Origin: Candidatus Latescibacterota bacterium
GTDB lineage: Bacteria; Latescibacterota; UBA2968
Length of the DNA stretch: 64,000 bases
Assembly: GCA_965208125.1 (NCBI GenBank)
Contig: OZ242320.1
Location: 4,736,001 to 4,800,000, forward strand
Direction of reading: 5' to 3'
Shown one piece after another: positions 38,160 through 63,161 of this stretch. Position numbers and translations under genes: made by a program. The notes under the pieces were generated by a model. That model ran no database searches, was not told where the DNA came from, and was given only the letters and a program-made list of their open reading frames with translations. Position 1 is the first letter of the stretch, and every line of letters begins with the position of its first letter.

Positions 38160-38519
38160 ATGATACACAGGCCAACACCGAATCTGTCCATCCTCATAAA
38201 TTGTCTTAAGTTTTACAAAAACAGTACTTTACCCCCCCCCCCCCCCCCCCCGAATTTTTCAAAATCGACATCACAGTTAGATACGCCCGCCGTACTCGCT
38301 TTCCCAGTCGTTCCTTTCCTCACAGACAAACTTCCTTTCTTTTCCAAATTCTTTTCGATACTCGCCCTGACATTGCTTGTATTTGCAGGGCAGGTGTCTG
38401 CACAGCGTTTGTCGCTCACGCATGATGTTACGGACGGCACAGCAGGTATCAAACTCTATCAAGGAGGAATCCATGTGGTTCATGAAGTCTATAAATTGGA
38501 GCGTGATAACCGCTCTTAA
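38160..38519 (+). pseudogene. 5' remnant of a secreted-protein gene with a poly-C tract, fused to the head of gene A
   Basis: RBS GGGAGGG; poly-Pro from C20, then signal peptide FSILALTLLVFAGQVSA|QRL...; sequence switches to the shared AACTCTATCAAGGAGGAATCC module at ~38451. Confidence 0.55.
38232..38251. repeat. C20 homopolymer tract
   Basis: 20 consecutive C residues. Confidence 0.95.
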
Positions 38520-41500
38520 AACAGCTCTTGCCATTGTCGTATGGCTGGCGATTGGTACGGCGAAAGCAACGCCGATTATGGATCAAGTGTCGGGGCGCGT
38601 GCTGCACTTTGGTGGAACGCCTGTGGTGGATGCCCAGGTGTCCCTGTTCGATTTGACAAATCTGCGTCAGGGACCTGTAGCGCAAGCCACGACAGACGGT
38701 GCGGGTTATTTCACGCTTTCACTGGCCGGGTTGCAAAATCAGGCCGTGTTTCCCGACGGCATTGGACTGGGACAGAACTATCCCAATCCCTTTAATCCTG
38801 CCACGATCATTCCCTACCAGTTGGCAGAGGCATCGCATGTGCGGATTGAGGTGTTCAATGTGTTGGGACAACTCGTTGCGACGCTGGTGGATGCGGAGCA
38901 GGCGGCGGGGTCTCATATTGTGCGGTGGGATGCTCGGGATGCTTCGGGACGAGGTGTGGCTGCGGGGGTGTATCTCTATCGGTTTACGGTTGGTGACATA
39001 ACGCAAGTTCGCCGAATGGTTTTGCTGGACGGCAAAAAGACCCCTGCGCCAATAGGTGGGAGACAGGTTGAAGCAGTGTCCGGTGTGGTGGATGGCCTGC
39101 CCAATCCTATTTATGGTCTGGTGATTTCGGGGCAGAATATGGTCTCCCATGTGGTGTCGGATTTCCAGTTATCTGACAGCTTCATCCCGATGGATATTGT
39201 GATTGACGGGATGGAGAGCGAAAAAAGTACAAAAGTCGTAGCACAGAGCGGAATTTTAGGCGACGCAGACCTCGATGATCAAGTTAATATCGTTGATGCG
39301 TTGCTCGTAGCGGTGTACAGTGCCAATCCCACCGCGATTTCAATTTCCAGTGACGCACATGTTGATGTAAACTGCGACGGTCAAGTCGATATTGTGGATG
39401 CTTTGCTGATCGGTAAGTACAGCATCAATCAGAACGATCCTGATGTACGTCGTGACGCACCGAATATCGGCACATCTAACATTTGTTCTCCCGCGTCCCT
39501 ATCGCCTGATCCATCGACAGTGACGTTTGATACCAACGGCACATGGCATCGGTTTACGATTCAATCGAGTGAGCGGGTTATTGTGGTGGCGAATCCGAGT
39601 GGCACAACCCCGCTTGTGGAGATCAGCACCAGCGGAGGGAGCAACAATTGCCCACCCGAACAAGAGGACGATTATAGCGGCAACAACGGCGAATCCATCT
39701 ACTTGTCTGGTTGTGGTTCAGGGACAGGCACAGTGGAACTGCGTCGGGCTTCGGACAACACAGTTCTTAACACCTATACCTTTGCTATCGGTGTTCAGGC
39801 GTCCCTATCGCCTGATCCATCGACAGTGACGTTTGATACCAACGGCACATGGCATCGGTTTACGATTCAATCGAGCGAGCGGGTTATTGTGGTGGCGAAT
39901 CCGAGTGGCACGACCCCGCTTGTGGAGATCACCACCACCAGCGGAGCGCGCAACCTTTGCCCAGCCGAACAGGATGACGATTATAGCGGCAACAACGGCG
40001 AATCCATCTACTTGTCTGGTTGTGGTTCAGGGACAGGCACAGTGGAACTGCGTCGGGCTTCGGACAACACGGTTCTTAACACCTATACCTTTGCTATCGG
40101 TACTGATTCTCGTGCTTCTCAGCCGCGGGGTATCACATACGCCAACAACCGGTTCTATGTGGTTGATAGGCAGGATGATAAGGTGTATGTGTACACGAGT
40201 TCTGGCGGGCGTGTTTCGAGTGCAGACTTCAATCTGGATAGCAACAACGGTAATCCGCAGGGTATCACATACGCCAATAACAGATTCTATGTGGTTGATT
40301 GGACAGATATAAAGGTGTATGTGTACACGAGTTCTGGCGGGCGTGTTTCGAGTGCAGACTTCAATCTGGATAGCAATAACACTAATCCATCGGGTATCAC
40401 ATACGCCAACAACCGATTCTATGTGGTTGATTACGATGATGCTAAGGTGTATGTGTACAACAGTTCTGGCGGGCGTGTTTCGAGTGCAGACTTCAATCTG
40501 GCCAGTGCCAACACTACTCCGGGTGGTATCACATACGCCAACAACCGATTCTATGTGGTTGATATAGGTGATGCTAAGGTGTATGTGTACAACAGTTCTG
40601 GTCAGCGTGTTTCAAGTGCAGACTTCAATCTGGATAGCAATAACACTGATCCGAATGGTATCACTTATACCAACGACCGACTCTATGTGGCTGATAGGGA
40701 CGATGATCAGATCTATAGTTACGATGTCAGTGGAGGAGGTGGTGGTGGTGGCAGTCCAGACCTGATCGTTGAATCGCCTTCGGTCAGCGATAACACCTTG
40801 ACGACAGGACAATCCTTCACCCTACAGACAACTGTCCGTAACCAGGGCTCAGGATCGTCCGCCTCGACCACGCTATATTATTATCGCTCGTCAAACTCGA
40901 CGATTTCGCCCAGCGATACACAAGTAGGCACAGATTCGGTGAGTGGACTTTCAGCTTCTGGCACGAGTTCTGAGTCTATAAGCTTGAATGCGCCATCCAG
41001 TGCGGGTACGTATTACTACGGTGCATGTGTGGCAAGCGTCAGTGGCGAGAGCGATACAGGAAATAATTGTTCAGATGGCGTTCAGGTAACGGTCAGCAGT
41101 AGCAGTGATGATCACGGGAATAGTCGTTCTACGGCGACACAGGTATCGTCAAATAGTACGACGAATGGGCAGATTTCTCCTGTGGGCGATGTGGACTATT
41201 TTCGGGTTGACGTAAGTGGTTCTGGGACACTAACAGCTTATACGACGGGAAGTACGGATACCGAGGGCCAATTGCAGGATAGCTCAGGCAACCTCCTTGA
41301 TTCCGATGATGATACAGGCGACCTCAACTTCCGGGTTTCAGCATCGGTGAGTGCAGGGACGTACTACATCCGGGTAATCGAACATGCTAATAACGATACA
41401 GGAAGCTACACCCTGCATGTCTCTGTTACTACCTCCACTCCCTCCTCCTTCAATCTGGATAGCTCCAACGGTAATTCGAGTGGTATCACATACGCCAACA

Positions 41501-42072
41501 ACAGATTCTATGTGGTTGATTGGTCGGATGACAAGGTGTATGCGTACACCAGTAGTGGTCAGCGTGTTTCGAGTGCAGACTTCAATCTGGATAGCAACAA
41601 CAGTTATCCGTTGGGTATCACATACGCCAACAACCGCTTCTATGTGCTTGATCACGATGATAGAAAGGTGTATGCGTACACCAGTAGTGGTCAGCGTGTT
41701 TCGAGTGCTGACTTCAATCTGGATAGCTCGGGTGGTGGTATCACATACACCAACAACCGCTTCTATATGGTTGCTCCCTCAGATGCCAAGGTGTATGCGT
41801 ACACCAGTAGTGGTCAGCGTGATGCGAGTGCAGACTTCAATCTGGATAGCAACAACAGTACAGGATCGGGTATCACATACGCCAACAACCGCTTCTATGT
41901 GCTTGATTTTGAGGATTACAAGGTGTATGCGTACACCAGTAGTGGTCAGCGTGTTTCGAGTGCAGACTTCAATCTGGATAGCAATAACGCTGGTGCGAAT
42001 GGTATCACGTATGCCAACAACAGATTCTATGTGGTTGATCAGCGGTATGACAAGGTGTATGTGTACGAGTAG
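38473..42072 (+). CDS. Modular secreted protein A: signal/FlgD-Ig/dockerin head + 2x102-aa domain + 5 NHL-like + CARDB + PPC + 5 NHL-like
   Basis: RBS AAGGAGG; LGQNYPNPFNP..GVYLYRF; GDADLDDQVNIVDA/DVNCDGQVDIVDA; GITYANNRFYVVD repeats; PDLIVES..VRNQG; DDHGN..DVDYFRV. Confidence 0.88.
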   Translation: MWFMKSINWSVITALKTALAIVVWLAIGTAKATPIMDQVSGRVLHFGGTPVVDAQVSLFDLTNLRQGPVAQATTDGAGYFTLSLAGLQNQAVFPDGIGLGQNYPNPFNPATIIPYQLAEASHVRIEVFNVLGQLVATLVDAEQAAGSHIVRWDARDASGRGVAAGVYLYRFTVGDITQVRRMVLLDGKKTPAPIGGRQVEAVSGVVDGLPNPIYGLVISGQNMVSHVVSDFQLSDSFIPMDIVIDGMESEKSTKVVAQSGILGDADLDDQVNIVDALLVAVYSANPTAISISSDAHVDVNCDGQVDIVDALLIGKYSINQNDPDVRRDAPNIGTSNICSPASLSPDPSTVTFDTNGTWHRFTIQSSERVIVVANPSGTTPLVEISTSGGSNNCPPEQEDDYSGNNGESIYLSGCGSGTGTVELRRASDNTVLNTYTFAIGVQASLSPDPSTVTFDTNGTWHRFTIQSSERVIVVANPSGTTPLVEITTTSGARNLCPAEQDDDYSGNNGESIYLSGCGSGTGTVELRRASDNTVLNTYTFAIGTDSRASQPRGITYANNRFYVVDRQDDKVYVYTSSGGRVSSADFNLDSNNGNPQGITYANNRFYVVDWTDIKVYVYTSSGGRVSSADFNLDSNNTNPSGITYANNRFYVVDYDDAKVYVYNSSGGRVSSADFNLASANTTPGGITYANNRFYVVDIGDAKVYVYNSSGQRVSSADFNLDSNNTDPNGITYTNDRLYVADRDDDQIYSYDVSGGGGGGGSPDLIVESPSVSDNTLTTGQSFTLQTTVRNQGSGSSASTTLYYYRSSNSTISPSDTQVGTDSVSGLSASGTSSESISLNAPSSAGTYYYGACVASVSGESDTGNNCSDGVQVTVSSSSDDHGNSRSTATQVSSNSTTNGQISPVGDVDYFRVDVSGSGTLTAYTTGSTDTEGQLQDSSGNLLDSDDDTGDLNFRVSASVSAGTYYIRVIEHANNDTGSYTLHVSVTTSTPSSFNLDSSNGNSSGITYANNRFYVVDWSDDKVYAYTSSGQRVSSADFNLDSNNSYPLGITYANNRFYVLDHDDRKVYAYTSSGQRVSSADFNLDSSGGGITYTNNRFYMVAPSDAKVYAYTSSGQRDASADFNLDSNNSTGSGITYANNRFYVLDFEDYKVYAYTSSGQRVSSADFNLDSNNAGANGITYANNRFYVVDQRYDKVYVYE

Positions 42073-42080
42073 TGGGCAAT

Positions 42081-42322
42081 AAGGAAGTGGTGGAGGTAGT
42101 TCGACAAGCGCAACCTTGAGGGATGAAAAAACGGTCTGAAGCGGTGTACAACTGATCGATTTTCAGACCCGTTCATCAGGATGAAAGGCAATGCGCGGTG
42201 GAGGGCTTTCGCGGTTGGCAAGCCTGTCAGCCCTCCGCCGCTTTGACAACAGAGACAGGTCGTCGCCTGCTCTGTTTCTCAATCTAAAACGCCAAAACCG
42301 CAGAATCAAGTTGCTTTTTTTT
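42081..42322 (+). repeat. Structured intergenic element, copy 1
   Basis: Starts AAGGAAGTGGTGG; hairpins at 42122-42177, 42195-42241, 42248-42276; ends in T-run. Confidence 0.9.
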
Positions 42323-42383
42323 ATGCGGATGGATCAGTCCCATGATCAAGGTGGCTTCCATAAACTCCATCAAGGAGGAATCC

Positions 42384-45300
42384 ATGTGGTTCATGAAGTC
42401 TATAAATTGGAGCGTGATAACCGCTCTTAAAACAGCTCTTGCCATTGTCGTATGGCTGGCGATTGGTACGGCGAAAGCAACGCCGATTATGGATCAAGTG
42501 TCGGGGCGCGTGCTGCACTTTGGTGGAACGCCTGTGGTGGATGCCCAGGTGTCCCTGTTCGATTTGACAAATCTGCGTCAGGGACCTGTAGCGCAAGCCA
42601 CGACAGACGGTGCAGGTTATTTCACGCTTTCACTGGCCGGGTTGCAAAATCAGGCCGTGTTTCCCGACGGCATTGGACTGGGGCAGAACTATCCCAATCC
42701 CTTTAATCCAGCCACGATCATACCCTACCAGTTGGCAGAGGCATCGCATGTGCGGATCGAGGTGTTCAATGTGTTGGGGCAACTCGTTGCGACGCTGGTG
42801 GATGCGGAGCAGGCGGCGGGTTCTCATATTGTGCGGTGGGATGCTCGGGATGCTTCGGGACGAGGTGTGGCTGCGGGGGTGTATCTCTATCGGTTTACAG
42901 TTGGTGACATAACGCAAGTTCGCCGAATGGTTTTGCTGGACGGCAAAAAGACCCCTGCGCCAATAGGTGGGAGACAGGTTGAAGCAGTGTCCGGTATGGT
43001 GGATGGCCTGCCCAATCCTATTTATGGTCTGGTGATTTCGGGGCAGAATATGGTCTCCCATGTGGTGTCGGATTTCCAGTTATCTGACAGCTTCATCCCG
43101 GTGGATATTGTGATCGATGGGGTGGAGAGCGAAAAAAGTACAAAAGTCGTAGCACAGAGCGGAATTTTAGGCGACGCAGACCTCGATGGTCAAGTTAATA
43201 TCGTTGATGCGTTGCTCGTAGCCGTGTACAGTGCCAATCCCACCGCGATTTCAATTTCCAGTGACGCACATGTTGATGTAAACTGCGACGGTCAAGTCGA
43301 TATTGTGGATGCCTGGCTGATCGGTAAGTACAGCATCAATCCGAACGATCCTGATGTACGTCGTGACGCCCCGAATATCGGCACATCTAACATTTGTTCT
43401 CCCGCGTCCCTATCGCCTGATCCATCGACCGTGACGTTTGACACCAACGGCACCTGGCATCGGTTTACGATTCAATCGAGTGAGCGGGTTATTGTGGTGG
43501 CGAATCCGAGTGGCACGACCCCGCTTGTGGAGATCAGCGCCAGCAGCGGAGAGAGCAACCTTTGTCCACCCGAACAGAATGATGAGATAACCCGCAACAA
43601 CGGCGAATCCATCTACTTGTCTGGTTGTGGTTCAGGGACAGGCACAGTGGAACTGCGTCGGGCTTCGGACAATACGGTTCTTAACACCTATACCTTTGCT
43701 ATCGGTGTCCAGGCGTCCCTATCGCCTGATCCATCGACCGTGACGTTTGATACCAATGGCACCTGGCATCGGTTTACGATTCAATCGAGCGAGCCGGTTA
43801 TTGTGGTGGCGAATCCGAGTGGCACAACCCCGCTTGTGGAGATTACCGACACCAGCGGAGAGGACAATTTTTGCCCACCCGAACAGGAGGACGATTATAG
43901 CGGCAACAACGGCGAATCCATCTACTTGTCTGGTTGTGGTTCAGGGACAGGCACAGTGGAACTGCGTCGGGCTTCGGACAACACGGTTCTTAACACCTAT
44001 ACCTTTGCTATCGGTACTGATTCTCATGCCCCTCAGCCGCGTGGTATCACGTATGCCAACAACCGCTTCTATGAGGTTGATCACGATGATGATAAGGTGT
44101 ATGTGTACAACAGTTCTGGTCAGCGTGATGCGAGTGCAGACTTCAATCTGGATAGCAATAACGGTAATCCGAATGGTATCACATACGCCAACAACCGCTT
44201 CTATGTGGTTGATCACAATGATGATAAGGTGTATGTGTACAACAGTTCTGGTCAGCGTGTTTCGAGTGCAGACTTCAATCTGGATAGCAATAACGGTAAT
44301 CCGGAAGGTATCACCTACGCCAACAACCGCTTCTATGTGGTTGATTGGATAGATGCCAAGGTGTATGTGTACACCAGTAGTGGACAGCGTGTTTCGAGTG
44401 CAGACTTCAATCTGGATAGCAATAACGGTACTGCAACGGGTATCACGTATGCCAACAACCGCTTCTATGTGGTTGATTACGATGATGCTAAGGTGTATGT
44501 GTACACCAGTAGTGGTCAGCGTGTTTCGAGTGCAGACTTCAATCTGGATAGCAATAACGGTAATCCGCTGGGTATCACTTATACCAACGACCGGCTCTAT
44601 GTGGCTGATAGGGACGATGATCAGATCTATAGTTACGATGTCAGTGGAGGAGGTGGTGGTGGCAGTCCAGACCTGATCGTAGAATCACCTTCGGTCAGCG
44701 ATAACACCTTGACAGCGGGACAATCCTTCACCCTACAGGCAACTGTCCGCAATCAGGGCACTGGTCAATCTGCTGCAACGACCTTGCGGTATTACCAATC
44801 TGCCAATGCGACCATATCTGCCAGCGACACACGGGTAGGCAGTGGTGCGGTAGGCAGCCTGAATGCTTCGAGCAGCAGTGTGGAATCAATCAGTTTGAAT
44901 GCGCCATCCAGTGCGGGTACGTATTACTACGGTGCGTGTGTTACGTCTGTGTCTGGTGAATCGAAGACGAATAACAACTGCTCTGTTGGTGTGCGCGTCA
45001 CGGTCAGCAGTAGCGGTGATGATCACGGGAATAGTCGTTCTACGGCGACACAGGTATCGTCAGGTAGTATGACGAATGGGCAGATTTCTCCTGTGGGCGA
45101 TGTGGACTATTTTCGGGTTGACGTAAGTGGTTCTGGGACACTAACAGCTTATACGACGGGAAGTACGGATACCGAGGGCCAATTGCAGGATAGCTCAGGC
45201 AACCTCCTTGATTCCGATGATGATACAGGCGACCTCAACTTCCGGGTTTCAGCATCGGTGAGTGCAGGGACGTACTACATCCGGGTAATCGAACATGCTA

Positions 45301-45995
45301 ATAACGATACAGGAAGCTACACCCTGCATGTCTCTGTTACTACCTCTACTCCCTCCTCCTTCAATCTGGATAGCAATAACGGTGATGCGTATGGTATCAC
45401 ATACGCCAACAACCGCTTCTATGTGACTGATTATTGGGGTGATGATAAGGTGTATGTGTACAACAGTTCTGGGCAGCGTGTTTCGAGTGCAGACTTCAAT
45501 CTGGATAGCGACAACACTCGTCCGACTGGTATCACGTATGCCAACAACAGATTCTATGTGCTTGATCTTGATGATGACAAGGTGTATGTGTACAACAGTT
45601 CTGGGCAGCGTGTTTCGAGTGCAGACTTCAATCTGGATAGCAATAACGGTGATGCGTTTGGTATCACATACGCCAACAACCGCTTCTATGTGACTGATTA
45701 TCAGGATGCAAAGGTGTATGTGTACAACAGTTCTGGCGGGCGTGTTTCGAGTGCAGACTTCAATCTGGATAGCAATAACGGTGGTCCAACGGGTATCACA
45801 TACGCCAACAACCGCCTCTATGTGGTTGATTACGGGGATGACAAGGTGTATGTGTACAACAGTTCTGGCGGGCGTGTTTCGAGTGCAGACTTCAATCTGG
45901 ATAGCGACAACAGTAATCCAACGAGTATGACATACGCCAACAACCGCTTCTATGTGGTTGATGAGGGGGCTGACAAGGTGTATGTGTACGAGTAG
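42384..45995 (+). CDS. Modular secreted protein B, same architecture as A with different variable windows
   Basis: Near-identical head module; 5+5 NHL-like repeats; CARDB allele differs from A. Confidence 0.88.
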   Translation: MWFMKSINWSVITALKTALAIVVWLAIGTAKATPIMDQVSGRVLHFGGTPVVDAQVSLFDLTNLRQGPVAQATTDGAGYFTLSLAGLQNQAVFPDGIGLGQNYPNPFNPATIIPYQLAEASHVRIEVFNVLGQLVATLVDAEQAAGSHIVRWDARDASGRGVAAGVYLYRFTVGDITQVRRMVLLDGKKTPAPIGGRQVEAVSGMVDGLPNPIYGLVISGQNMVSHVVSDFQLSDSFIPVDIVIDGVESEKSTKVVAQSGILGDADLDGQVNIVDALLVAVYSANPTAISISSDAHVDVNCDGQVDIVDAWLIGKYSINPNDPDVRRDAPNIGTSNICSPASLSPDPSTVTFDTNGTWHRFTIQSSERVIVVANPSGTTPLVEISASSGESNLCPPEQNDEITRNNGESIYLSGCGSGTGTVELRRASDNTVLNTYTFAIGVQASLSPDPSTVTFDTNGTWHRFTIQSSEPVIVVANPSGTTPLVEITDTSGEDNFCPPEQEDDYSGNNGESIYLSGCGSGTGTVELRRASDNTVLNTYTFAIGTDSHAPQPRGITYANNRFYEVDHDDDKVYVYNSSGQRDASADFNLDSNNGNPNGITYANNRFYVVDHNDDKVYVYNSSGQRVSSADFNLDSNNGNPEGITYANNRFYVVDWIDAKVYVYTSSGQRVSSADFNLDSNNGTATGITYANNRFYVVDYDDAKVYVYTSSGQRVSSADFNLDSNNGNPLGITYTNDRLYVADRDDDQIYSYDVSGGGGGGSPDLIVESPSVSDNTLTAGQSFTLQATVRNQGTGQSAATTLRYYQSANATISASDTRVGSGAVGSLNASSSSVESISLNAPSSAGTYYYGACVTSVSGESKTNNNCSVGVRVTVSSSGDDHGNSRSTATQVSSGSMTNGQISPVGDVDYFRVDVSGSGTLTAYTTGSTDTEGQLQDSSGNLLDSDDDTGDLNFRVSASVSAGTYYIRVIEHANNDTGSYTLHVSVTTSTPSSFNLDSNNGDAYGITYANNRFYVTDYWGDDKVYVYNSSGQRVSSADFNLDSDNTRPTGITYANNRFYVLDLDDDKVYVYNSSGQRVSSADFNLDSNNGDAFGITYANNRFYVTDYQDAKVYVYNSSGGRVSSADFNLDSNNGGPTGITYANNRLYVVDYGDDKVYVYNSSGGRVSSADFNLDSDNSNPTSMTYANNRFYVVDEGADKVYVYE

Positions 45996-46003
45996 TGGGT
46001 AAT

Positions 46004-46182
46004 AAGGAAGTGGTGGGGGTAGTTCGGCAAGCGCAACCTTGAGGGATGAAAAAACGGGATGAATGGGATGAAAAGATGAACAGGATGAAAGGCGATGCGC
46101 GGTGGAGGGCTTTCGCGGTTGGCAAGCCTGTCAGCCCTCCGCCGCTTTGACAACAGAGACAGGTCGTCACCTGCTCTGTTTC
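46004..46182 (+). repeat. Structured intergenic element, copy 2 (lacks first hairpin core, 3'-truncated)
   Basis: Shares AAGGAAGTGGTGG start and the GCGGTGGAGGGCT..AGCCCTCCGCCGC and ACAGAGACAGG..CCTGCTCTGT hairpins. Confidence 0.88.
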
Positions 46183-46282
46183 GCAACAACACAGGCGACG
46201 ATTGCGGTTTGGGTAAAATGGATTTGAATACGATGCGGGTCAAGTCCAGATAGGACTTAACCGAAAAAGAAGGAGAAAGAAA

Positions 46283-47842: not shown

Positions 47843-47931
47843 CGGGATGGGAACCGTCCCGATAGTATGAATGGGTATCTCACATGATCTGAGATGCCGT
47901 CCGTTGAACACCATTTACATAGGAGAATCCA

Positions 47932-48378
47932 ATGCGGAATCTAATTCTGTCAACGTTATCTATACTCACACTTCTGATATACCCGCTGTCTCTTTCGGCA
48001 CAGAACAGTTTTTCCCTCTCGTTGGATGTGGATGGTGCAACGGGCGATCAGGCCGTCACATCTTTGAATACTGATCCGAATCAAGTTGTCGCCATTCAGA
48101 TCTTCGGTAGAGACATTCAGAATGCGAATGGTCTTTCTGTGCGTTTTGAATACGATGCGGGTCAAGTGACTTATGACGGCTTTGATACAGGCAATGTCTT
48201 GCCCAATGCCCAGGCGCTCTCACAACAGGGTACAGGTTTTGTTGAAATCGGCATTGGGTCTTTGGGTGGGCAGGCGACGGCTAACAATGGTCTGATCGGC
48301 ACAATACGCTTTTGCACAAAAGGAAGTGGTGGGGGTAGTTCGGCAAGTGCAACCTTGAGAGATGAAAAAACGGTCTGA
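47932..48378 (+). CDS. Secreted cohesin-like domain protein D, apparently truncated by the intergenic element
   Basis: Signal peptide; VAIQIFGRDIQNANGLSVRFEYDAGQVTY..GLIGTIRF; the final ~19 codons are read from repeat copy 3. Confidence 0.65.
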   Translation: MRNLILSTLSILTLLIYPLSLSAQNSFSLSLDVDGATGDQAVTSLNTDPNQVVAIQIFGRDIQNANGLSVRFEYDAGQVTYDGFDTGNVLPNAQALSQQGTGFVEIGIGSLGGQATANNGLIGTIRFCTKGSGGGSSASATLRDEKTV

Positions 48379-48586
48379 AGCGTTGTACAATTGGTCGATT
48401 TTCAGACCCGTTCATCAGGAGGAATGGGATGAAAGGATGGACAGGATGAAAGGCGATGCGCGGTGGAGGGCTTTCGCGGTTGGCAAGCCTGTCAGCCCTC
48501 CGCCGCTTTGACAACAGAGACAGGTCATCACCTGCTCTGTTTTTCAATCTAAAACGCCAAAACCGCAGAATCAAGTTGCTTTTTTT
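48320..48586 (+). repeat. Structured intergenic element, copy 3
   Basis: Full-length copy with all three hairpins. Confidence 0.9.
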
Positions 48587-50529: not shown

Positions 50530-50537
50530 GAGCCAAT

Positions 50538-55323: not shown

Positions 55324-55692
55324 ATGAAATGGGTCATTGCTGCTGTTGTAGTGCTCGTGATCGCTTGTGCGGGCTGTTTTTTGCACACACAAGCAGAAGA
55401 ATGTGAGTACGATGGGTTGCCTGCCAAATGCGGGGAACTCATTATACACCTGAACAAAAACTATCGAACAGGTGAGTTACATCCGCTGACCGGTGATTTG
55501 CGAGACCTGATAGCAAAGGATGGAGGTAGCATCCTCTTGGACGATGTCGATCTTGGGATCTTGGTCGCAAAATTTGATAGCGACGAAGAAAAGCTGGCAC
55601 CTATTCTCGATCGCTTGCACAAACACCCGGCCGTGCGCAGTGCGGACTACAACTGGCTTTCGGTTCCATATGGAGGATTGCGCGTTGATTAG
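55324..55692 (+). CDS. Small exported protein G, subtilase propeptide-like
   Basis: Hydrophobic N-terminus with Cys; GELIIHL...LHKHPAVRSADYN resembles S8 pro-domains. Confidence 0.55.
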   Translation: MKWVIAAVVVLVIACAGCFLHTQAEECEYDGLPAKCGELIIHLNKNYRTGELHPLTGDLRDLIAKDGGSILLDDVDLGILVAKFDSDEEKLAPILDRLHKHPAVRSADYNWLSVPYGGLRVD

Positions 55693-55868
55693 AAAGATAG
55701 GGGACGCCGTATGTTCTTCCATAGCTGGAGTTTGCGCCGCGCTGTTAACTTCTTTGAGTCGATATAAGCAAGGAGACTAATAAAATGAATTGCTCTGAAT
55801 TCACTGGCTTGATTTTGCAAATTGTTGAAAGTATCTGCAGATTCTTAAGCTCTATCAAGGAGGAATCC

Positions 55869-58800
55869 ATGTGGTTCATGAAGTCTATAAATTGGAGCGT
55901 GATAACCGCTCTTAAAACAGCTCTTAAAACAGCTCTTGCCATTGTCGTATGGCTGGCGATTGGTACGGCGAAAGCAACGCCGATTATGGATCAAGTGTCG
56001 GGTCGCGTGCTGCACTTTGGCGGAACGCCTGTGGTGGATGCTCAGGTGTCCCTGTTCGATTTGAACGATCTGCGTCAGGGACCTGTAGCGCAAGCCACAA
56101 CAGACGGTGCGGGTTATTTCACGCTTTCACTGGCCGGGTTGCAAAATCAGGCCGTGTTTCCCGACGGCATTGGACTGGGGCAGAACTATCCCAATCCCTT
56201 TAATCCAGCTACGATCATTCCCTACCAGTTAGCAGAGGCATCGCATGTGCGGATCGAGGTGTTCAATGTGTTGGGACAACTCGTTGCGACGTTGGTGGAT
56301 GCGGAGCAGGCAGCGGGTTCTCATATTGTGCGGTGGGATGCTCGAGATGCTTCGGGACGAGGTGTGGCTGCGGGGGTGTATCTGTATCGGTTTACAGTTG
56401 GTGACATAACGCAAGTTCGTCGAATGGTTTTGCTGGACGGCAAAAAGACCCCTGCGCCAATAGGTGGGAGACAGGTTGAAGCAGTGTCCGGTGTGGTGGA
56501 TGGCCTGCCCAATCCTATTTATGGTCTGGTGATTTCGGGGCAGAATATGGTCTCCCATGTGGTGTCGGATTTCCAGTTATCTGACAGCTTCATCCCGATG
56601 GATATTGTGATCGATGGGGTGGATATTTTGTTTGATGGGATGGAGAGTGAAAAAAGTACAAAAGTCGTAGCACAGAGCGGAATTTTAGGTGACGCAGACC
56701 TCGATGGTCAAGTTACTATCGTTGATGCGTTGCTCGTAGCCATGTACAGTGCCAATCCCACCGCGATTTCAATTTCCAGTGACGCACATGTTGATGTAAA
56801 CTGCGACGGTCAAGTCGATATTGTGGATGCCTGGCTGATAGGTAAGTACAGCATCAATCCGAACGATTCTGATGTACGTCGTGACGCCCCGAATATCGGC
56901 ACATCTAACATTTGTTCTCCCGCGTCCCTATCGCCTGATCCATCGACAGTGACGTTTGATACCAATGGCACATGGCATCGGTTTACGATTCAATCGAGTG
57001 AGCGGGTTATTGTGGTGGCGAATCCGAGTGGCACAACCCCGCTTGTGGAGATCAGCGCCAGCAGCGGAGAGAGCAACCTTTGTCCACCCGAACAGAATGA
57101 TGAGATAACCCGCAACAACGGCGAATCCATCTACTTGTCTGGTTGTGGTTCAGGGACAGGCACAGTGGAACTGCGTCGGGCTTCGGACAATACGCTTCTC
57201 AACACCTATACCTTTTCTATCGGTGTCCAGGCGTCCCTATCGCCTGATCCATCGACAGTGATGTTTGATACCAACGGCACCTGGCATCGGTTCACGATTC
57301 AATCGAGTGAGCGGGTTATTGTGGTGGCGAATCCGAGTGGCACGACCCCGCTTGTGGAGATTACCACCACCAGCGGAGCGCGCAACCTTTGCCCAGCCGA
57401 ACAGGATGACGATTATAGCGGCAACAACGGCGAGTTCATCTACTTGTCTGGTTGTGGTTCAGGGACAGGCACAGTGGAACTGCGTCGGGCTTCGGACAAC
57501 ACAGTTCTTAATACCTATACCTTTTCTATCGGTACTGATTCTCGTGCCCCTCTTCCGACTGGTATCACATACGTCAACAACCGCTTCTATGAGGTTGATC
57601 ACGATGATGATAAGGTGTATGTGTACAACAGTTCTGGTCAGCGAGTAGCAAGTGCTGACTTCAATCTGGATAGCAATAACGGTAATCCGCAGGGTATCAC
57701 GTATGCCAACAACCGCTTCTATGTGGTTGATCACGATGATGATAAGGTGTATGTGTACAACAGTTCTGGTCAGCGAGTAGCAAGTGCTGACTTCGACCTG
57801 GATAGCAACAACGGGGATCCGATTGGTATCACATACGCCAACAACCGATTCTATGTGGTTGATTGGATAGATGATAAGGTGTATGTGTACAACAGTTCTG
57901 GGCAGCGTGTTTCAAGTGCAGACTTCAATCTGGATAGCAATAACGGTAATCCGGAGGGTATCACATACGCCAACAACAGGTTCTATGTGGTTGATTGGAT
58001 AGATGATAAGGTGTATGTGTACAACAGTTCTGGTCAGCGTGATGCGAGTGCAGACTTCAATCTGGATAGCAACAACGATATTCCGACTGGTATCACTTAT
58101 ACCAACGGCCGACTCTATGTGGCTGATAGAGACGATGATCAGATCTATAGTTACGATGTCAGTGGAGGAGGAGGTGGTGGTGGCAGTCCAGACCTGATCG
58201 TAGAATCACCCTCAGTGAGCAATAGCACCCTGACGACGGGGCAATCATTCACCCTACAAGCAACTGTCCGCAATCAGGGCACTGGTCAATCTGCTGCAAC
58301 GACCTTGCGGTATTACCAATCTGTCAATGCGACCATATCTGTAAGCGACACACGGGTAGGCAGTGCTGCGGTAGGCAGCCTGAATGCTTCGAGCAGCAGT
58401 GTGGAATCAATCAGCTTGAATGCGCCATCGAGTTCGGGTACGTATTACTACGGTGCGTGTGTTTCGTCTGTGTCTGGCGAATCGAAGACGAATAACAACT
58501 GCTCTGTTGGTGTGCGTGTCACGGTCAGTAGTGGTGGTGGAACGACCGTTACCATTCCTGATGTGAATCTTCGCGCGGTGATTACGGATAGTCTGGGCAA
58601 GGCGCGTGGTGCGCCGATCACGCGGGCTGAGATGGCGAGTTTGACGCGCCTTTCGGCACCGAACTCGAACATCAGCGATTTGACCGGACTTGAGGTTGCA
58701 ACTGGTCTGACAAGGCTGGAGCTTGGTAGAGAGTTTGTGTCTGGTAGCTGGGTCAACAGCAACGAAATATCCGACCTCTCGCCCCTATCTGGTCTAACCA

Positions 58801-59594
58801 ACTTGACATACCTCGATCTTACCTCCAACAGCATCTCGGATATATCTGCTCTGTCCAATCTGACTAATCTGACAGGGCTGTTTCTTTTCAGCAACAGTAT
58901 CTCGGATGTGTCAGCCCTGTCTAACCTGACCAACCTGACATACCTCAGTCTTAGCCGGAACAGCATCTCGGATGTGTCAGCCCTGTCTAACCTGACAAAC
59001 CTGACAGTGCTGTATCTTTACAACAACAGCATCTCGGATGTGTCAGCCCTGTCTAACCTGACAAACCTGACAGTGCTGTATCTTGACAACAACAGCATCT
59101 CGGATGTGTCAGCCCTGTCTAACCTGACTAATCTGACAGAGCTGGGGCTTCGGAACAACAGCATCTCGGATGTGTCAGCCCTGTCTAACCTGACAAACCT
59201 GACAGTGCTGTATCTTGACAACAACAGCATCTCGGATGTGTCAGCCCTGTCTAACCTGACAAACCTGACAGTGCTGTATCTTTACAACAACAGCATCTCG
59301 GATGTGTCAGCCCTGTCTAACCTGACAAACCTGACAAGGCTGTATCTTGACAACAACAACATCTCGAACATTGCACCTCTGGCCGCAAATACGGGTTTGG
59401 GCAGTGGCGATGAGGTTGATGTGAGAAACAACCCGCTGAGTGCTACATCACTCAACACGCACATTCCAACCCTTCAGGGCAGAGGAGTTAATGTGAGATT
59501 TGGATCAGGGAAGCCTGCGGTTGTTGATGAGCAAAAGCCGCGTATGGAGGGTATGCTACCGGAGGAAAGAGAATACAATCCTTTCAGGCGGTGA
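55869..59594 (+). CDS. Modular secreted protein H: head + 2x102-aa + 5 NHL-like + CARDB + internalin-like LRR
   Basis: Head module, then TIPDVNLRAVITDSLGK cap and 9 regular LRR units sharing the DNA framework of gene C. Confidence 0.88.
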   Translation: MWFMKSINWSVITALKTALKTALAIVVWLAIGTAKATPIMDQVSGRVLHFGGTPVVDAQVSLFDLNDLRQGPVAQATTDGAGYFTLSLAGLQNQAVFPDGIGLGQNYPNPFNPATIIPYQLAEASHVRIEVFNVLGQLVATLVDAEQAAGSHIVRWDARDASGRGVAAGVYLYRFTVGDITQVRRMVLLDGKKTPAPIGGRQVEAVSGVVDGLPNPIYGLVISGQNMVSHVVSDFQLSDSFIPMDIVIDGVDILFDGMESEKSTKVVAQSGILGDADLDGQVTIVDALLVAMYSANPTAISISSDAHVDVNCDGQVDIVDAWLIGKYSINPNDSDVRRDAPNIGTSNICSPASLSPDPSTVTFDTNGTWHRFTIQSSERVIVVANPSGTTPLVEISASSGESNLCPPEQNDEITRNNGESIYLSGCGSGTGTVELRRASDNTLLNTYTFSIGVQASLSPDPSTVMFDTNGTWHRFTIQSSERVIVVANPSGTTPLVEITTTSGARNLCPAEQDDDYSGNNGEFIYLSGCGSGTGTVELRRASDNTVLNTYTFSIGTDSRAPLPTGITYVNNRFYEVDHDDDKVYVYNSSGQRVASADFNLDSNNGNPQGITYANNRFYVVDHDDDKVYVYNSSGQRVASADFDLDSNNGDPIGITYANNRFYVVDWIDDKVYVYNSSGQRVSSADFNLDSNNGNPEGITYANNRFYVVDWIDDKVYVYNSSGQRDASADFNLDSNNDIPTGITYTNGRLYVADRDDDQIYSYDVSGGGGGGGSPDLIVESPSVSNSTLTTGQSFTLQATVRNQGTGQSAATTLRYYQSVNATISVSDTRVGSAAVGSLNASSSSVESISLNAPSSSGTYYYGACVSSVSGESKTNNNCSVGVRVTVSSGGGTTVTIPDVNLRAVITDSLGKARGAPITRAEMASLTRLSAPNSNISDLTGLEVATGLTRLELGREFVSGSWVNSNEISDLSPLSGLTNLTYLDLTSNSISDISALSNLTNLTGLFLFSNSISDVSALSNLTNLTYLSLSRNSISDVSALSNLTNLTVLYLYNNSISDVSALSNLTNLTVLYLDNNSISDVSALSNLTNLTELGLRNNSISDVSALSNLTNLTVLYLDNNSISDVSALSNLTNLTVLYLYNNSISDVSALSNLTNLTRLYLDNNNISNIAPLAANTGLGSGDEVDVRNNPLSATSLNTHIPTLQGRGVNVRFGSGKPAVVDEQKPRMEGMLPEEREYNPFRR
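58800..59370 (+). repeat. 66-bp LRR tandem repeat, 9 units
   Basis: Same 48-bp framework as in gene C. Confidence 0.9.
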
Positions 59595-59738: not shown

Positions 59739-60225
59739 TCATGCGCGTGCGACTTCAAAGGCCGTGATGTTGCGGGTATTTTTGCTGAATTCTACGCCTA
59801 TAAGATGGATTGGCTGGTCAAGGCCGCGATATTTGTCTGCGTAACGCTTTTCCTGCAATTGTGCCATTGCAGCGCCTTCAGATGCCATTTCGACGACTTT
59901 GAACTCGAACAGGTAGATGTTATCGTTGAAGTGAACGGCCATGTCCAGACGACCATGGCTACTGCTGTCTTCTACGGTGATATTTAGTCCCAATCCCGCG
60001 AAATAGGAGTAGAACACGCTGGCGTAGTAGCCTTCGAAATTGGCGATGTCGTTGTTGGTGTACCATTCGTAGGGGATGCTGGCGAAGAAGGCGTGGAATA
60101 AGGTTTCCATGCCAGCAAAGTCGTTGGCTTCCAGCAAACGATACAGGCGCACAGTGTTCGCCATAAGGCGAGTTGAGTCTTTCACCAGATAGCGCAACAG
60201 GCTCTCGTTGAGGCGCGGAAGGTCT
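59739..60225 (-). pseudogene. C-terminal fragment of an AAA-ATPase/PD-(D/E)XK nuclease (PDDEXK_9-like)
   Basis: FFASIPY, EGYYASVFYSYF, GRLDM, FEFK, AMAQLQEKRYADKY, IGVEFS; no ATPase part upstream; 5' limit approximate. Confidence 0.75.
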
Positions 60226-60526
60226 GAATGCCGATGGGCAGTCTGCGTCTGGTCATGGTTTCCCTGTATTCAAAAGGTTCTACTTTGCCAGGCATTTTTC
60301 AGCGTCTTTTGCAGAAAGTATCATAAGGATGGCACTTTTGCACAACTATTTTTTTTCTTGATGTTACGCCTGTCTCGCGTTTGGGCAGAAAGCGGAAGCC
60401 TTTGCCCCTTCGCAATCGCGGTTGGATGTCCAAAAGTGCGGTTTTTAACCAGCGTGCTGTTGATTTGAATTTGTCCATCGCTTCACATTTCTGGTCCGTT
60501 GAACACTATTTACATAGGAGAATCCA

Positions 60527-60969
60527 ATGCGGAACCTGATACTGTCATTGTTATCAACCATTGCACTTCTGATATATCCGCTGTCTCTTTCGGCGCAGAA
60601 CAGTTTTTCTCTTTCGCTGGATGTGGATGGCGCAACGGGCGATCAGGCCGTCACATCTTTGAATACTGATCCAGATCAAGTTGTCGTCAGATCTTCGGTG
60701 GAGACATTCAGAATGCGAATGGTCTTTCTGTGCGTTTTGAATACGATGCGGGTCAAGTGACTTATGACGGCTTTGATACAGGCAATGTCTTGTCCAATGC
60801 CCAGGCGCTCTCACAACAGGGTACAGGTTTTGTTGAAATCGGCATTGGGTCTTTGGGTGGGCAGGCGACGGCTAACAATGGTCTGATCGGCACAATACGC
60901 TTTCGCACAAAAGGAAGTGGTGGGGGTAGTTCGGCAAGTGCAACCTTGAGAGATGAAAAAACGGTCTGA
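60527..60969 (+). pseudogene. Frameshifted copy (J) of cohesin-like gene D
   Basis: Matches 47932-48378 but lacks 4 bp (CCAT) at ~60686. Confidence 0.85.
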
Positions 60970-61176
60970 AGCGGTGTACAACGGGTCGATTTTCAGACCC
61001 GTTCATCAGGAGGAATGGGATGAAAGGATGGACAGGATGAAAGGCGATGCGCGGTGGAGGGCTTTCTCGGTTGGCAAGCCTGTCAGCCCTCCGCCGCTTT
61101 GACAACAGAGACAGGTCATCACCTGCTCTTTTCTCAATCTAAAACGCCTAAACCGCAGAATCAAGTTGCTTTTTTT
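60911..61176 (+). repeat. Structured intergenic element, copy 5
   Basis: Near-identical to copy 3. Confidence 0.9.
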
Positions 61177-61406
61177 CAGGCGGTGGGATGTTGTTTTCTC
61201 TATCAGGGGTAGGGGATGAAACCAGCACCCACCGCGCCAATGTCTTCGGAATCAAGGAAAGGAGGTATGCGAAGCCCATCTCTCTGTGTTTGGAACGATA
61301 GACTTCGGCGAGAATGTCAAGACTACTGACTTTGGCCTTGCCGGGGGGATCGGTGCCGAGATACCGATCTCCGATCTGCACATTTTTCAATAAAGGAGAA
61401 TTTCAA

Positions 61407-63161
61407 ATGTCATCCTTCTACCGTCTTTTAGCTGCGATAGCACTTTGCTCTATCCTCACCACACCAAATGCTTACTGTGCTGAAGAGATGCCGGTCCTTT
61501 TCCTGGATGGTCGATCTCATGTTGAATTGCCGAGAAATCTTTTTGACCGAACAACACAGGCGACGATTGAGGTTTGGGTAAAATGGAATCGTTTCAACCA
61601 GTGGTCTCGGGTCTTTGATTTTGGTCATGAAGGTAATGCAGTCGTTCTACAGAATGAGAAATCCTCCAACACGCTCAATTATAGAATTTGGGATAGATCT
61701 GGCAAGCGGCATGGCACCCAGGCCAAAAAGGCTGTCAATACGGGTGCCTGGTATCATATGGCTGTTGTAAGCGGATTTGATGGAATGAAATTTTACATCA
61801 ATGGTCAGCTTGTAGATCGAGACGATTTCAGGGGGTCTCTGAGTGAAGCGGCTGGGGGAACCAATTTTATTGGAAAATCAAACTGGCCCAAGGACAAACT
61901 GTTCGAGGGCTACATTTCAGAACTGCGAATCTGGTCAAAAGTGCGGTCACAATCAGAAATCCGTTCTGCAATGGAGACAGCCCTTGCAGGAACCGAAGAT
62001 GGCCTGCTCGCTTATTACAGATTTACGGAAGCGGCTGATGGCCTCATTCCAAATGTTGTAGATCCAGGTTTCCCAGCGCGGATGGTGGGGACCGCAAGAC
62101 TCGAAAACGTTCGAGCCATCGCCCCTTTGCTGGTACCTGATGCACTTGAAAAAGCGGCTGTCGCCAGTTATGAAAAAGCGAAAGCCGCCCTTGATGCCAA
62201 ACAGTTTGCCACAGCGATTGATGAATTTGAGCGGCTCAACGGCCTTTACCCACAATATATGGACTCTGATAACTTACTTGCCCAGGCGCGTCAACTTGAG
62301 GCAGAACGACAAGCCGAAAATTTCTACCAGACAGGCATGCAACATATTCAACAAGGCAAATTTCGGGAGGCATATTTCGAATTTGAGTCTGCATTAAGCC
62401 AGGTCCCTGCATTTAAGGATGCACAAATGCACATGAAAAACGCGCTTGAAAAGGCCACCTATCGCGTTGCGATTTACCCTTTCAAGACAGCGACTATGAG
62501 TGCCAATATCATGCTTTTGCAACAGGCATTGACAACCAATTTGATGCAAGACAAGTCGGTATTTGTCGAATATGTAGATCAGCAGGTTCTCAATCAGCTT
62601 TCTACACGTCAGGGGACTCATTTTGGCGTGATTGACCCCATGCAAACTTTATCTGCTGCAAAAAATGAAAATATTCGCGTTGTGGTGTTTGGTGATTTGT
62701 TGGCTGCCACAGCTATCCCATCGAATCCTTATATGCGACCTGAAACAGCCTATACAGCACTGACTGTCGGCAGGAAGGTTGTCGGAAAAGGGCCACAGCA
62801 AACGTACTATATCATATCACAAAACGTGCAGGTTCATTGTGAAGCGGTTTACAGAATTCTGGATACACAGACAGGCGCTGTTCTCCACTTTGGCACCGTG
62901 CGTGAAAATTTGAGCGATCAGGTAGAATACGCAGAGTATCATGGAAATAAAAATGCACTTGTGAGTAATGTATATAGGGATGAGAATGCAAAGACGACAA
63001 GATGGATAGTTATACCGCTCCGTGAGTCAAGATTCAATGCTCGAAGAGATCTCAGAAATCCTGGAGAAATGATGAATGAAGCCCTGAGGGGATTGGGAGA
63101 GAAAATCGCTCGAGAAATCAATGGTTTCCTGTCATCACACCTGGCCACGAGTTCACAATAA
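61407..63161 (+). CDS. Secreted protein K: LamG-like jellyroll + TPR-like helices + C-terminal domain
   Basis: TIEVWVKW, WYHMAVV, FYINGQL, FEGYISELRIWS, LLAYYRF; helical repeats (YQTGMQHIQQGKFREAY). Confidence 0.85.
   Translation: MSSFYRLLAAIALCSILTTPNAYCAEEMPVLFLDGRSHVELPRNLFDRTTQATIEVWVKWNRFNQWSRVFDFGHEGNAVVLQNEKSSNTLNYRIWDRSGKRHGTQAKKAVNTGAWYHMAVVSGFDGMKFYINGQLVDRDDFRGSLSEAAGGTNFIGKSNWPKDKLFEGYISELRIWSKVRSQSEIRSAMETALAGTEDGLLAYYRFTEAADGLIPNVVDPGFPARMVGTARLENVRAIAPLLVPDALEKAAVASYEKAKAALDAKQFATAIDEFERLNGLYPQYMDSDNLLAQARQLEAERQAENFYQTGMQHIQQGKFREAYFEFESALSQVPAFKDAQMHMKNALEKATYRVAIYPFKTATMSANIMLLQQALTTNLMQDKSVFVEYVDQQVLNQLSTRQGTHFGVIDPMQTLSAAKNENIRVVVFGDLLAATAIPSNPYMRPETAYTALTVGRKVVGKGPQQTYYIISQNVQVHCEAVYRILDTQTGAVLHFGTVRENLSDQVEYAEYHGNKNALVSNVYRDENAKTTRWIVIPLRESRFNARRDLRNPGEMMNEALRGLGEKIAREINGFLSSHLATSSQ

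Follow-up and report, generated by a model that had tools for sequence, protein, structure and literature searches.

A private tandem array of dockerin-tagged eukaryote-like binder genes in a Latescibacterota bacterium, probably built by duplication and ordinary recombination

Introduction

Expansions of eukaryote-like proteins (ELPs) are the best-known genomic mark of sponge symbionts, and to our knowledge the origin of such repertoires and the retention of these proteins on the cell surface have been little described. The present study deals with a tandem array of genes for exported multidomain repeat proteins in Candidatus Latescibacterota bacterium (assembly GCA_965208125.1), of which a stretch of 64,000 nucleotides was analysed (contig OZ242320.1, positions 4,736,001 to 4,800,000, forward strand; in the following the window, to which all coordinates without a prefix refer). 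A preceding interpretation made from the letters of this stretch alone, hereafter the sequence-only reading, had seen in the array a diversity-generating system that swaps C-terminal payloads onto a constant export and anchoring head. From our point of view, the locus is instead a well-preserved case of domain shuffling by ordinary recombination within a private gene-family expansion.

In Rhs, contact-dependent inhibition (CDI) and polymorphic-toxin loci, a constant N-terminal part is combined with swapped C-terminal tips, and displaced orphan cassettes are found. Antigenic variation by gene conversion is represented by pilE/pilS of Neisseria, vlsE of Borrelia and tprK of Treponema. As to protein display, the general spread of cohesin-dockerin modules was reportedly treated by Peer et al. 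in 2009.

For sponge symbionts, PMC3909097 describes proteins that bear YWTD repeats in tandem and have a leader or membrane helices, and PMC8163846 reports an enrichment of eukaryote-like repeats (ELRs) in sponge-associated lineages, in agreement with the sequence-only reading, which had assigned the domains of the array to this kind. Single ELPs enable bacteria to escape sponge phagocytosis, as reported in PMC13747020. The array shares with such proteins the occurrence of eukaryote-type repeat domains in exported proteins, as judged from Pfam matches and from leaders recognised by eye. Its host bacterium is probably sponge-associated, and a run from another study labelled as sponge metagenome holds parts that are 96% identical to the array.

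Results

Architecture of the array

Between 38.4 and 63.2 kb of the window, open reading frame (ORF) listing, repeat finding and self-BLAST revealed a row of plus-strand genes composed of shared DNA blocks (74-99% identity) that are joined in frame, as the sequence-only reading had described. The reading frames of the seven large genes of the window stay open for 519-1498 codons across all junctions. Each unit forms a whole gene that has a start of its own, and C, E and K have their own leaders. Nearly all of the DNA at 38.4-52 and 56-61 kb matches other DNA in the genome.

Genes A (38473-42072) and B (42384-45995) share one architecture, namely a constant N-terminal module (Head), two T2 modules, a module of five NHL-type units (NHL5), CARDB, PPC and a second NHL5. 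In A, according to Pfam and the translations, these downstream modules lie at 39493-40101 (both T2), 40093-40734 (NHL5), ~40735-41100 (CARDB), 41106-41428 (PPC) and 41446-42069 (NHL5); in B, they were assigned by Pfam and self-BLAST. Gene C (46283-47842; Pfam) consists of a leader, a C-type dockerin and leucine-rich repeat (LRR) units of 22 aa. Gene E (48724-50529) is a chimera, in which a K-type leader and the first strands of the LamG domain of K (to 48974) precede a dockerin of the E type, behind which ten NHL-type units are arranged. Gene F (50858-55312) joins the Head to PPC, six YWTD units, an S8 peptidase and a vWA domain, and gene H (55869-59594) joins it to two T2 modules, NHL5, CARDB and LRR. 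The architectures of these six genes, as well as the direct Head-to-PPC junction in F, had been read correctly from the letters alone. Gene K (61314-63161), formerly described as LamG-TPR, comprises a leader, Laminin_G_3 (105 bits) and a TPR-like region without a dockerin; the first assignment could be confirmed, and the TPR-like matches stayed below the Pfam cut-offs.

The remaining two members, D (47932-48378) and J (60527-60969), had been called cohesin-like. Both match the cohesin profile (PF00963) weakly and below its cut-off of 24.1 (18.5 and 20.6 bits), and D belongs to a family with a predicted cohesin-like fold; both are 3'-truncated. J is a frameshifted, truncated copy of D that falls into two ORFs and contains one TGA.

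The YWTD units and the protease of F are well supported (Ldl_recept_b 123 bits, Peptidase_S8 101 bits), and the NHL profile (PF01436) reaches 54 bits in B, 29 in H and 72 in a downstream gene. PPC rests on 25.7 bits in F at a cut-off of 25.9 together with a precomputed PF04151 match on B. No Pfam match was obtained for T2, and its Atlas hits (0.76-0.79, to BACON and Big_2) can serve as no more than leads. Relatives of the array's NHL, LRR and dockerin blocks are found elsewhere in the genome. Two further genes of the genome contain the leader-plus-dockerin block of C at 95-96% identity; the third copy (95%), at C1:191270-192090 and thus 4.6 Mb away from the array, forms the start of a 273-aa protein whose LRR is of a different, plant-type kind, which shows that leader cassettes are reused across the genome and beyond the array.

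A recent expansion at a hot spot

The genome is closed and consists of a single contig of 5,747,750 bases with zero N. The repeated DNA extends about 28 kb past the window end, to about genome position 4,828,000, and the array amounts to 56.5 kb in total (56,454 bp between the flank genes). To the left, it is bordered by a heparinase II/III-like gene (35875-37959, plus strand; Pfam and synteny), which is preceded by hemA and hemC (33657-37959 with the heparinase-like gene), and to the right by cobA/hemD (L002 10411-11970). The hemA/hemC and cobA/hemD genes are split here by the heparinase-like gene and the 56-kb array, and in most sibling species by the heparinase-like gene alone.

A comparison across related genomes, which the sequence-only reading had suggested, shows the array to be private. 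Synteny was judged in the nine same-genus genomes that carry both flank genes on one contig, the others having no heparinase match on the same contig. In six of these nine the heparinase-like gene directly adjoins cobA/hemD at a distance of 6-25 bp, and in the other three the distance is 2.1, 3.5 and 6.9 kb. The three small inserts hold a fragment or small gene of the C-terminal domain (CTD) type, an LRR-YWTD gene and a dockerin-LRR-YWTD-LRR gene, respectively, and in two sibling species the site is thus occupied by other LRR/YWTD genes. Such near-empty or small-insert sites, set against 56,454 bp in the present genome, argue that the insertion site is a hot spot and that the present array is a recent, private expansion. 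The GC content of the array (47-57% per 2 kb) resembles that of the genome (51.2%).

Duplication units, debris and the intergenic repeat

The duplication units cross gene borders. One of them (41482-43402), comprising the end of A, the intergenic repeat IG1 and the Head of B, matches 49897-51909, that is the end of E, IG1 and the Head of F, at 88% identity. Another (47899-48974) runs from D through IG1 into E, of which it includes the first 83 codons, and has its counterpart at 60494-61564 (96% identity), where J and IG1 are followed by the beginning of K. Since the Pfam LamG match of K begins at residue 66, within the part common to E and K, E bears a LamG stub ahead of its dockerin. Homologues of D (n = 85) are typically 215-257 aa long and run on into a second cohesin-like module or an E-type dockerin, in one case into an LRR cap; in D itself, the similarity to the family is lost at about residue 128, exactly at the start of IG1. 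At another place in the genome, a gene that unites a cohesin-like module with a dockerin and LRR is intact. The junctions between modules are sharp, with only few shared bases.

Further debris derives from an AAA-ATPase_like/PD-(D/E)XK_9 (PDDEXK_9) gene, of which a 3' remnant lies on the minus strand at 59739-60197 and is 91% identical to a full gene 13 kb downstream. The full gene is located at L001 9517-11298 (minus strand) and the other two remnants at L002 1312-1398 and 6139-6192; a further site is L098 6-1619. The 3' remnants (459, 87 and 54 nt) come after three large array genes in convergent orientation, and the full gene comes after a fourth. The genome contains two full copies of this gene, and a homologue adjoins the Head gene cluster of a distant genome (G057).

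IG1, a repeat of about 250 nt on the plus strand, is present in six copies in the genome, all of them inside the array. It follows A (42077-42332), B (45998-46186, a partial copy), D (48317-48596), E (50534-50802) and J (60908-61186), and the sixth copy is located downstream of the window (L001 3017-3252). Three strong hairpins are predicted, the last followed by a T-rich run, and RNAalifold found no compensatory pairs in five near-identical copies, which are too alike for covariation; a comparison with Rfam gave no match at E <= 1. IG1 may represent a shared terminator and promoter region that also offers homology for recombination. Taken together, units across gene borders, debris, remnants and abrupt junctions are the signature of unequal or illegitimate recombination, the out-of-frame products of which were lost, and they disfavour cassette exchange by an enzyme.

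Modules of one gene differ in their history

The divergence between A and B rises from 1.9% in the Head (19 of 1020 nt) to 7.8% and 5.0% in the two T2 modules (T2a and T2b), 14% in NHL5 and 27% in CARDB. The nearest paralogue changes between T2a and T2b: in T2a, H differs from A at 24 positions and from B at 8, in T2b from A at 10 and from B at 21 (Fisher p = 0.001). In NHL5 (A-H 15.8%, B-H 10.6%) and CARDB (A-H 30.5%, B-H 6.3%), H is again closer to B, and across four modules and the three gene pairs of A, B and H the heterogeneity is pronounced (chi-square 41.3, p = 2.5e-7). This module-wise switching of the nearest paralogue attests to gene conversion or block replacement among paralogues.

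In the Head, synonymous divergence (dS) is 0.04-0.11 at a nonsynonymous to synonymous ratio (dN/dS) of 0.10-0.29, and downstream dS reaches 0.17-0.39. The informative sites of the Head group the copies as AB/FH (three substitutions and two indels), AH/BF (two) or AF/BH (one), and the pair with the fewest substitutions is B and F (17). Conversion inside the Head was considered on this basis, for which the sites are too few.

A second level of variation concerns the individual repeats. Among 28 of 43 NHL-type units (15 were left out owing to a terminal position or a spacing other than exactly 44 aa), 7 of 44 codons are hypervariable (entropy 1.7-3.2 bits), with a ratio of nonsynonymous to synonymous polymorphism (pN/pS) of 0.91 as compared to 0.27 in the scaffold, many codons of which are invariant even at silent sites. 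In 17 LRR units that have the exact core motif and the 22-aa spacing, 4 of 22 codons are hypervariable (pN/pS 1.87 vs 0.03), and all variation falls on the four x positions of the strand motif. Hence the two-level diversification proposed earlier, with rearranged whole modules and few hypervariable positions per repeat, was borne out.

The structural model of NHL5, with five units per module, is of high quality (predicted local distance difference test, pLDDT, 92.3; predicted template modelling score, pTM, 0.91). NHL domains are its best matches by E-value (6fpt_B, 5e-12) and five-bladed glutaminyl cyclases by template modelling score (TM, 0.83); the classical NHL propeller is six-bladed. According to the strand pattern of the model, the variable codons sit in two loops, one connecting strands 2 and 3 and the other leading into the next blade, and in the general topology of propellers these two loops open on one face. 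The repeat-level variation supports selection on predicted binding surfaces over a homogenised scaffold.

The Head module

The Head occurs in four copies in the genome, all of them in the window, and measures 1041-1074 nt. With their ribosome-binding sites (RBS), the copies lie at 38451-39492 (A), 42362-43403 (B), 50836-51910 (F) and 55847-56921 (H), and they are 93.9-98.1% identical to that of A over 1041 nt. A string of 27 nt covering RBS and start is found exactly four times, in front of all four Head genes, with 0 occurrences expected by chance. The earlier account of a module of 1.04-1.07 kb that recurs four times together with its RBS is thus accurate.

The encoded part begins with a hydrophobic leader that by eye resembles a signal peptide, followed by a CarboxypepD_reg-like stretch (below the cut-off), an internal domain of the CTD type of the type IX secretion system (T9SS), a linker and a type I dockerin. 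The internal domain matches both FlgD_ig and Por_Secre_tail above their cut-offs, the latter (PF18962; cut-off 27) with 32.1-33.9 bits in three Heads and 27.2 bits in that of F. It is 51-52% identical to the terminal domain of a 268-aa cohesin protein, which is a genuine C-terminal copy. In the Head genes, its end is reached at about residue 186 of 1199-1498, and genuine terminal copies in the genome end at the stop codon, so that a defining feature of a T9SS signal is missing from the Head. An export and anchoring role of the Head is plausible because of the signal peptide-like leader and the dockerin.

While the sorting-type domain was found in all of 60 related genomes searched, full-length relatives of the Head are confined to seven places in three of the 60, which belong to other families of the class (43-47% identity), and none of 20 same-genus genomes carries one. 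In all seven relatives the Head is N-terminal and the payloads differ: giant YWTD-PKD-cadherin-fn3-LRR-M8 peptidase chains (4059, 3808 and ~2134 aa), YWTD alone (569 aa), YWTD with CARDB (1200 aa), CarboxypepD_reg repeats (1021 aa) or no payload (345 aa). One Head with many payloads is hence an old property of this small family.

A metagenome scan with the Head-specific half gave four matches at dockerin level and no close relative. Likewise, residues 186-339 of A found only their own paralogues and three weak dockerin matches among a set of 5.8 billion proteins (proteins of 659-2099 aa). A scan of a genome collection with the Head alignment was keyed on the CTD-type motifs and returned that domain alone, in many metagenome-assembled genomes (MAGs) from the FCB (Fibrobacteres-Chlorobi-Bacteroidetes) group, and is uninformative on the whole Head.

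Dockerins, cohesins and type IX sorting domains

The large proteins of the array are tagged with dockerins of three types (Head-type, C-type and E-type), the exception in the window being K. The type I dockerin profile (PF00404; cut-off 22.9) scores 26.0-29.5 bits in the Heads, 36.5 in C and 25.7 in E, and two segments of the D-x-D-x-D-G type are visible in each translation. The whole genome contains 71 dockerin matches (58 above the cut-off) and 7 cohesin matches (5 above the cut-off). For a full-length member of the D family (P0014, alignment of 21 rows), the core was modelled with a pLDDT of 70-88, and Foldseek retrieved cohesins (1g1k_A, E 1.9e-4; 2jh2_A, TM 0.69), the top 30 or so hits being solved cohesins alone.

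A candidate surface anchor for the dockerin proteins is the 268-aa protein mentioned above, in which a leader is followed by a cohesin that scores 23.9 bits, at the cut-off, and by a T9SS sorting domain in terminal position, and whose gene lies just past the array (L002 12074-12880, C1:4832074-4832877). It is present in all 21 genomes of the genus with 81-97% identity and always beside cobA/hemD. The T9SS translocon is represented by a homologue of SprA, the part of the system searched for (TIGR04189, 641 bits, a single frame of 2094 aa). A second copy of the 268-aa protein is located at C1:1729284. In addition, two adjacent giant ORFs of 1606 and 2154 aa (L116 2947-7767 and 7846-14310; C1:2.267-2.278 Mb) hold three Pfam matches to cohesin between them, and each ends in a cohesin-plus-CTD pair, resembling scaffoldins.

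Outside the array, 44 dockerin ORFs were counted (leaving out 13 matches below the cut-off, 3 that pass only together with neighbours and 11 within the array), 24 with the dockerin near the N terminus and 20 with it at the C terminus. The former include 12 with LRR, 3 with CARDB, 2 each with fn3, cadherin and NHL, and 1 with GH5; the latter carry WD40-type propellers, cadherin-like and Ig-like domains, as given by the best 25 of 112 families. When the Head dockerin (residues 248-339) was paired with residues 21-178 of the 268-aa protein, its cohesin part, the complex prediction scored 0.09 at a mark of 0.32, which is uninformative either way. As judged from these domain assignments, the genome would encode a non-cellulosomal cohesin-dockerin system for the display of binder domains.

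Recombination functions and contig evidence

No recombinase or reverse transcriptase (RT) is encoded in the window, as had been noted before, and the search could be extended to the whole genome (96.4% complete): RVT_1 gave 0 matches, control genomes giving some, and Resolvase (serine recombinases) likewise 0. Phage_integrase has five matches, the nearest about 406 kb from the array; the wider search for additional Heads and a linked recombinase that the sequence-only reading had put forward hence ended with the four Heads of the window and this distant integrase. When 20 ORFs upstream of the array and those of the array itself were scanned with Pfam, ordinary metabolism and no transposase came to light, and neither integrase, tRNA gene nor transposase was seen at the array borders.

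No silent cassettes are present in the array, every copy having its own start. As regards programmed systems, the RT of a diversity-generating retroelement is missing genome-wide, and instead of one expression site with startless donors, as in antigenic variation by gene conversion, four Head genes share RBS and start. The site-specific recombinase beside the segments that marks a shufflon was not found either, inverted repeats at the module borders not having been searched for.

Read evidence consists of short contigs, which break at repeats and have low power for alternative joints. Contigs with zero differences from three runs of one sample bridge the leader-dockerin joint of E, the CARDB-LRR joint of H and the path from the YWTD end of F to the start of H; these runs probably represent the source sample and are hence not independent. 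The Head-PPC joint of F has 30 letters on one side in contigs and was not counted. No credible alternative joint was seen in these contigs of little power. A lone odd joint from 52133 back to 45235, with 37 shared letters within the PPC repeat and a depth of 4, was read as a graph artefact.

In the sponge-metagenome run of the other study, a contig of 2484 nt (depth 61) lacks Head, YWTD and vWA and begins with a C-type dockerin, which 501 unmatched letters separate from the S8 block (51 differences in 1355, 96% identity); another 168 letters without a match lead on to the end of the PDDEXK_9 remnant. A related population thus has the S8 block in another architecture. At >=95% identity, this run showed no cover of Head, T2, CARDB or vWA.

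Other genes of the array and the window

Between F and H, an ORF of 122 aa (55324-55692, plus strand) encodes a protein with a hydrophobic, lipoprotein-like N terminus, for which neither a Pfam match nor a second copy in the genome was found. Downstream of the window, the array continues with genes for dockerin-NHL, dockerin-LRR-YWTD-LRR, LRR-YWTD-LRR-FG-GAP, LRR with an M66-like region and LRR proteins, together with the full AAA-ATPase_like/PDDEXK_9 gene and a sigma-54 activator. The latter (L001 12327-15512) lies inside the array and bears a Reg_prop/Y_Y_Y sensor propeller. The sigma-54 promoter consensus has two matches in the window, with 3.2 expected, and none in the window's part of the array.

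Upstream, a D12-class adenine methyltransferase is encoded at 6878-7939, with no obvious restriction partner among the ORFs scanned, and a 648-aa DUF6785/DUF6784 membrane protein at 11751-13697. The named relatives of hemC that are 90-92% identical are filed under Gemmatimonadetes bacterium, and one at 61% under Candidatus Latescibacterota; proteins of the D family carry the public labels Latescibacteria or Latescibacterota.

Discussion

We consider it probable that the locus is a lineage-specific paralogue expansion, formed by segmental duplication, in-frame illegitimate recombination and gene conversion, which encodes dockerin-tagged eukaryote-like binders. In the order of events that we infer, a tandem array would have grown at one hot spot inside the row of heme genes, between the heparinase-like gene and cobA/hemD, beginning with segmental duplications, probably by unequal crossing-over between repeats of 66 nt/132 nt, the 250-nt IG1 and the 1-kb Heads. 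Occasional illegitimate joins at domain linkers would have followed, of which the in-frame products alone would have been kept as genes, and gene conversion among the paralogues would have acted thereafter, with no dedicated enzyme involved. The products would be exported multidomain proteins in which one of three dockerin types precedes the binders, that is a five-bladed NHL-type propeller, a YWTD propeller, an LRR solenoid or CARDB/PPC sandwiches, and, in one protein, an S8 protease with vWA. Their dockerins would plug into cohesin proteins with a C-terminal type IX sorting domain, one of which is encoded just past the array, and the cell would thereby display varied eukaryote-like binding surfaces, presumably toward its sponge host or toward particles.

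Of the claim that payloads are swapped onto a constant head, the in-frame reuse of modules and the varied payloads behind a constant N-terminal Head stand. For a diversity-generating system no support was obtained: a linked recombinase or RT and silent cassettes are absent, and cross-border units, debris and sharp junctions speak against it, so that programmed shuffling is not supported. One could nevertheless imagine an active contingency locus without such an enzyme, in which Heads, leaders and IG1 serve as anchors for RecA-type conversion or unequal exchange, payloads are swapped between expressed genes within a host, at a rate high enough to be measured, and the repertoire differs between cells or strains. 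Heads that, with their RBS, are kept 94-98% identical in genes whose further modules have diverged by as much as 27% would fit this idea, as would the change of the nearest paralogue between adjacent modules, the hypervariable positions in surface loops and on the LRR strand face, and the other architecture of the S8 block in a related population. We nonetheless regard it as unlikely, given a genome that has neither RT nor serine recombinase and no tyrosine recombinase within about 406 kb of the array, copies that all carry their own start with no silent cassettes beside them, tolerated pseudogene debris, junctions without extended homology and a sole odd contig joint (52133 to 45235) that fits a graph artefact. 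If true, each cell lineage would show a different set of dockerin-mounted binders on a T9SS-anchored cohesin scaffold, a modular counterpart of antigenic variation that works by general recombination alone and without silent cassettes. Active, programmed diversification is possible at low odds, and a dedicated shuffling machine is less likely than ordinary duplication and recombination that build varied surface-attached binders, which is the most likely account.

Arrival of the array or of a Head-bearing core as a block from another lineage would explain why the Head is found in 0/20 same-genus genomes and yet, at 43-47% identity, in three genomes of other families, one of which also clusters Head genes beside an AAA-ATPase_like/PDDEXK_9 gene. 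Such an acquired island is rather improbable in view of a GC content like that of the genome, borders at which no integrase, tRNA gene or transposase was seen (Pfam covering 20 upstream ORFs and the ORFs of the array), and blocks of NHL, LRR and dockerin type with relatives in this very genome; moreover, the closest Head relatives are so distant that no donor is in sight, and the same site holds other LRR/YWTD genes in two sibling species. Lastly, the mosaics could be chimeric joins from collapsed or mis-threaded repeats, as the region is almost wholly repetitive and the short-read contigs of the likely source sample break at each repeat border. We deem this very improbable, since the paralogues differ by 2-27% and are therefore not collapsed copies, all 5,747,750 bases of the genome form a single contig free of N, the seven large genes are open through every junction, and zero-difference contigs, probably from the source sample, bridge the joints in E and H and the path from the YWTD units of F to H.

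Several observations weigh against the expansion that we favour or against parts of it. Short contigs that break at repeats leave room for ongoing recombination within the population, and the homogenised Heads would agree equally with gene conversion that is frequent and possibly selected. No source of the Head is in view, since it is missing from 20/20 same-genus genomes and no close relative of its specific half was found in the searches described. As its CTD-like domain is internal, the role of a T9SS signal cannot be assumed, and K has no dockerin at all. In addition, the pN/pS of the variable NHL codons (0.91) is not above 1, and the public phylum labels of relatives disagree between hemC and the D-family proteins.

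With respect to the birth of a repertoire, the closed genome provides a record that comprises an empty site in siblings, duplication units with their breakpoints, leftover fragments and modules of different history within one gene. For the question of surface retention, dockerin-bearing binders and cohesin proteins with type IX sorting domains suggest an answer in the form of directly testable pairs. Both the propeller of five blades and the LRR of 22 residues, in which a near-invariant scaffold carries few variable positions, furthermore represent natural binder libraries. The cohesin-dockerin display logic of such binders is plausible and, as far as the literature searched shows, undescribed: nothing linking dockerins with sponge symbionts was found in the literature searched, the words dockerin and cohesin are absent from the accessible text of PMC8163846 and PMC3909097, whose supplementary gene tables may list such genes, and dockerin, cohesin and cellulosome are all absent as words from PMC4454575.

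Compared with the ELPs and ELRs of sponge symbionts (Poribacteria, sponge-associated Latescibacterota), the array offers the same domains, namely LRR, YWTD/LDL-receptor class B, NHL, TPR, cadherin and fn3, as well as predicted export and many copies per genome; it differs in being one tandem run of 56 kb in which near-identical blocks are reordered and tagged with dockerins. With the cellulosomes and non-cellulosomal cohesin-dockerin systems of Clostridia, Ruminococcus and Bacteroidota it has type I dockerins with two calcium-loop repeats in common, and this genome also encodes multi-cohesin proteins, cohesin-plus-dockerin proteins and a D family whose predicted fold matches cohesins. Unlike in cellulosomes, the payloads are mostly binding repeats, with 1 GH5 among 24 dockerin-first ORFs, the dockerins of the array are located near the N terminus, and the cohesin proteins end in a T9SS-type sorting domain rather than in SLH or sortase signals. 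Tandem paralogues that put varying C-terminal payloads behind a constant head, orphans truncated by recombination, and homology within the constant part are reminiscent of Rhs and CDI loci, whereas the payloads here are binders, a protease and vWA rather than toxins, immunity genes are lacking and several modules are rearranged. Finally, mosaic paralogues and hypervariability at exposed positions recall antigenic variation, shufflons and diversity-generating retroelements, from which the array is set apart by having no cassette-fed expression site, no invertase and no RT.

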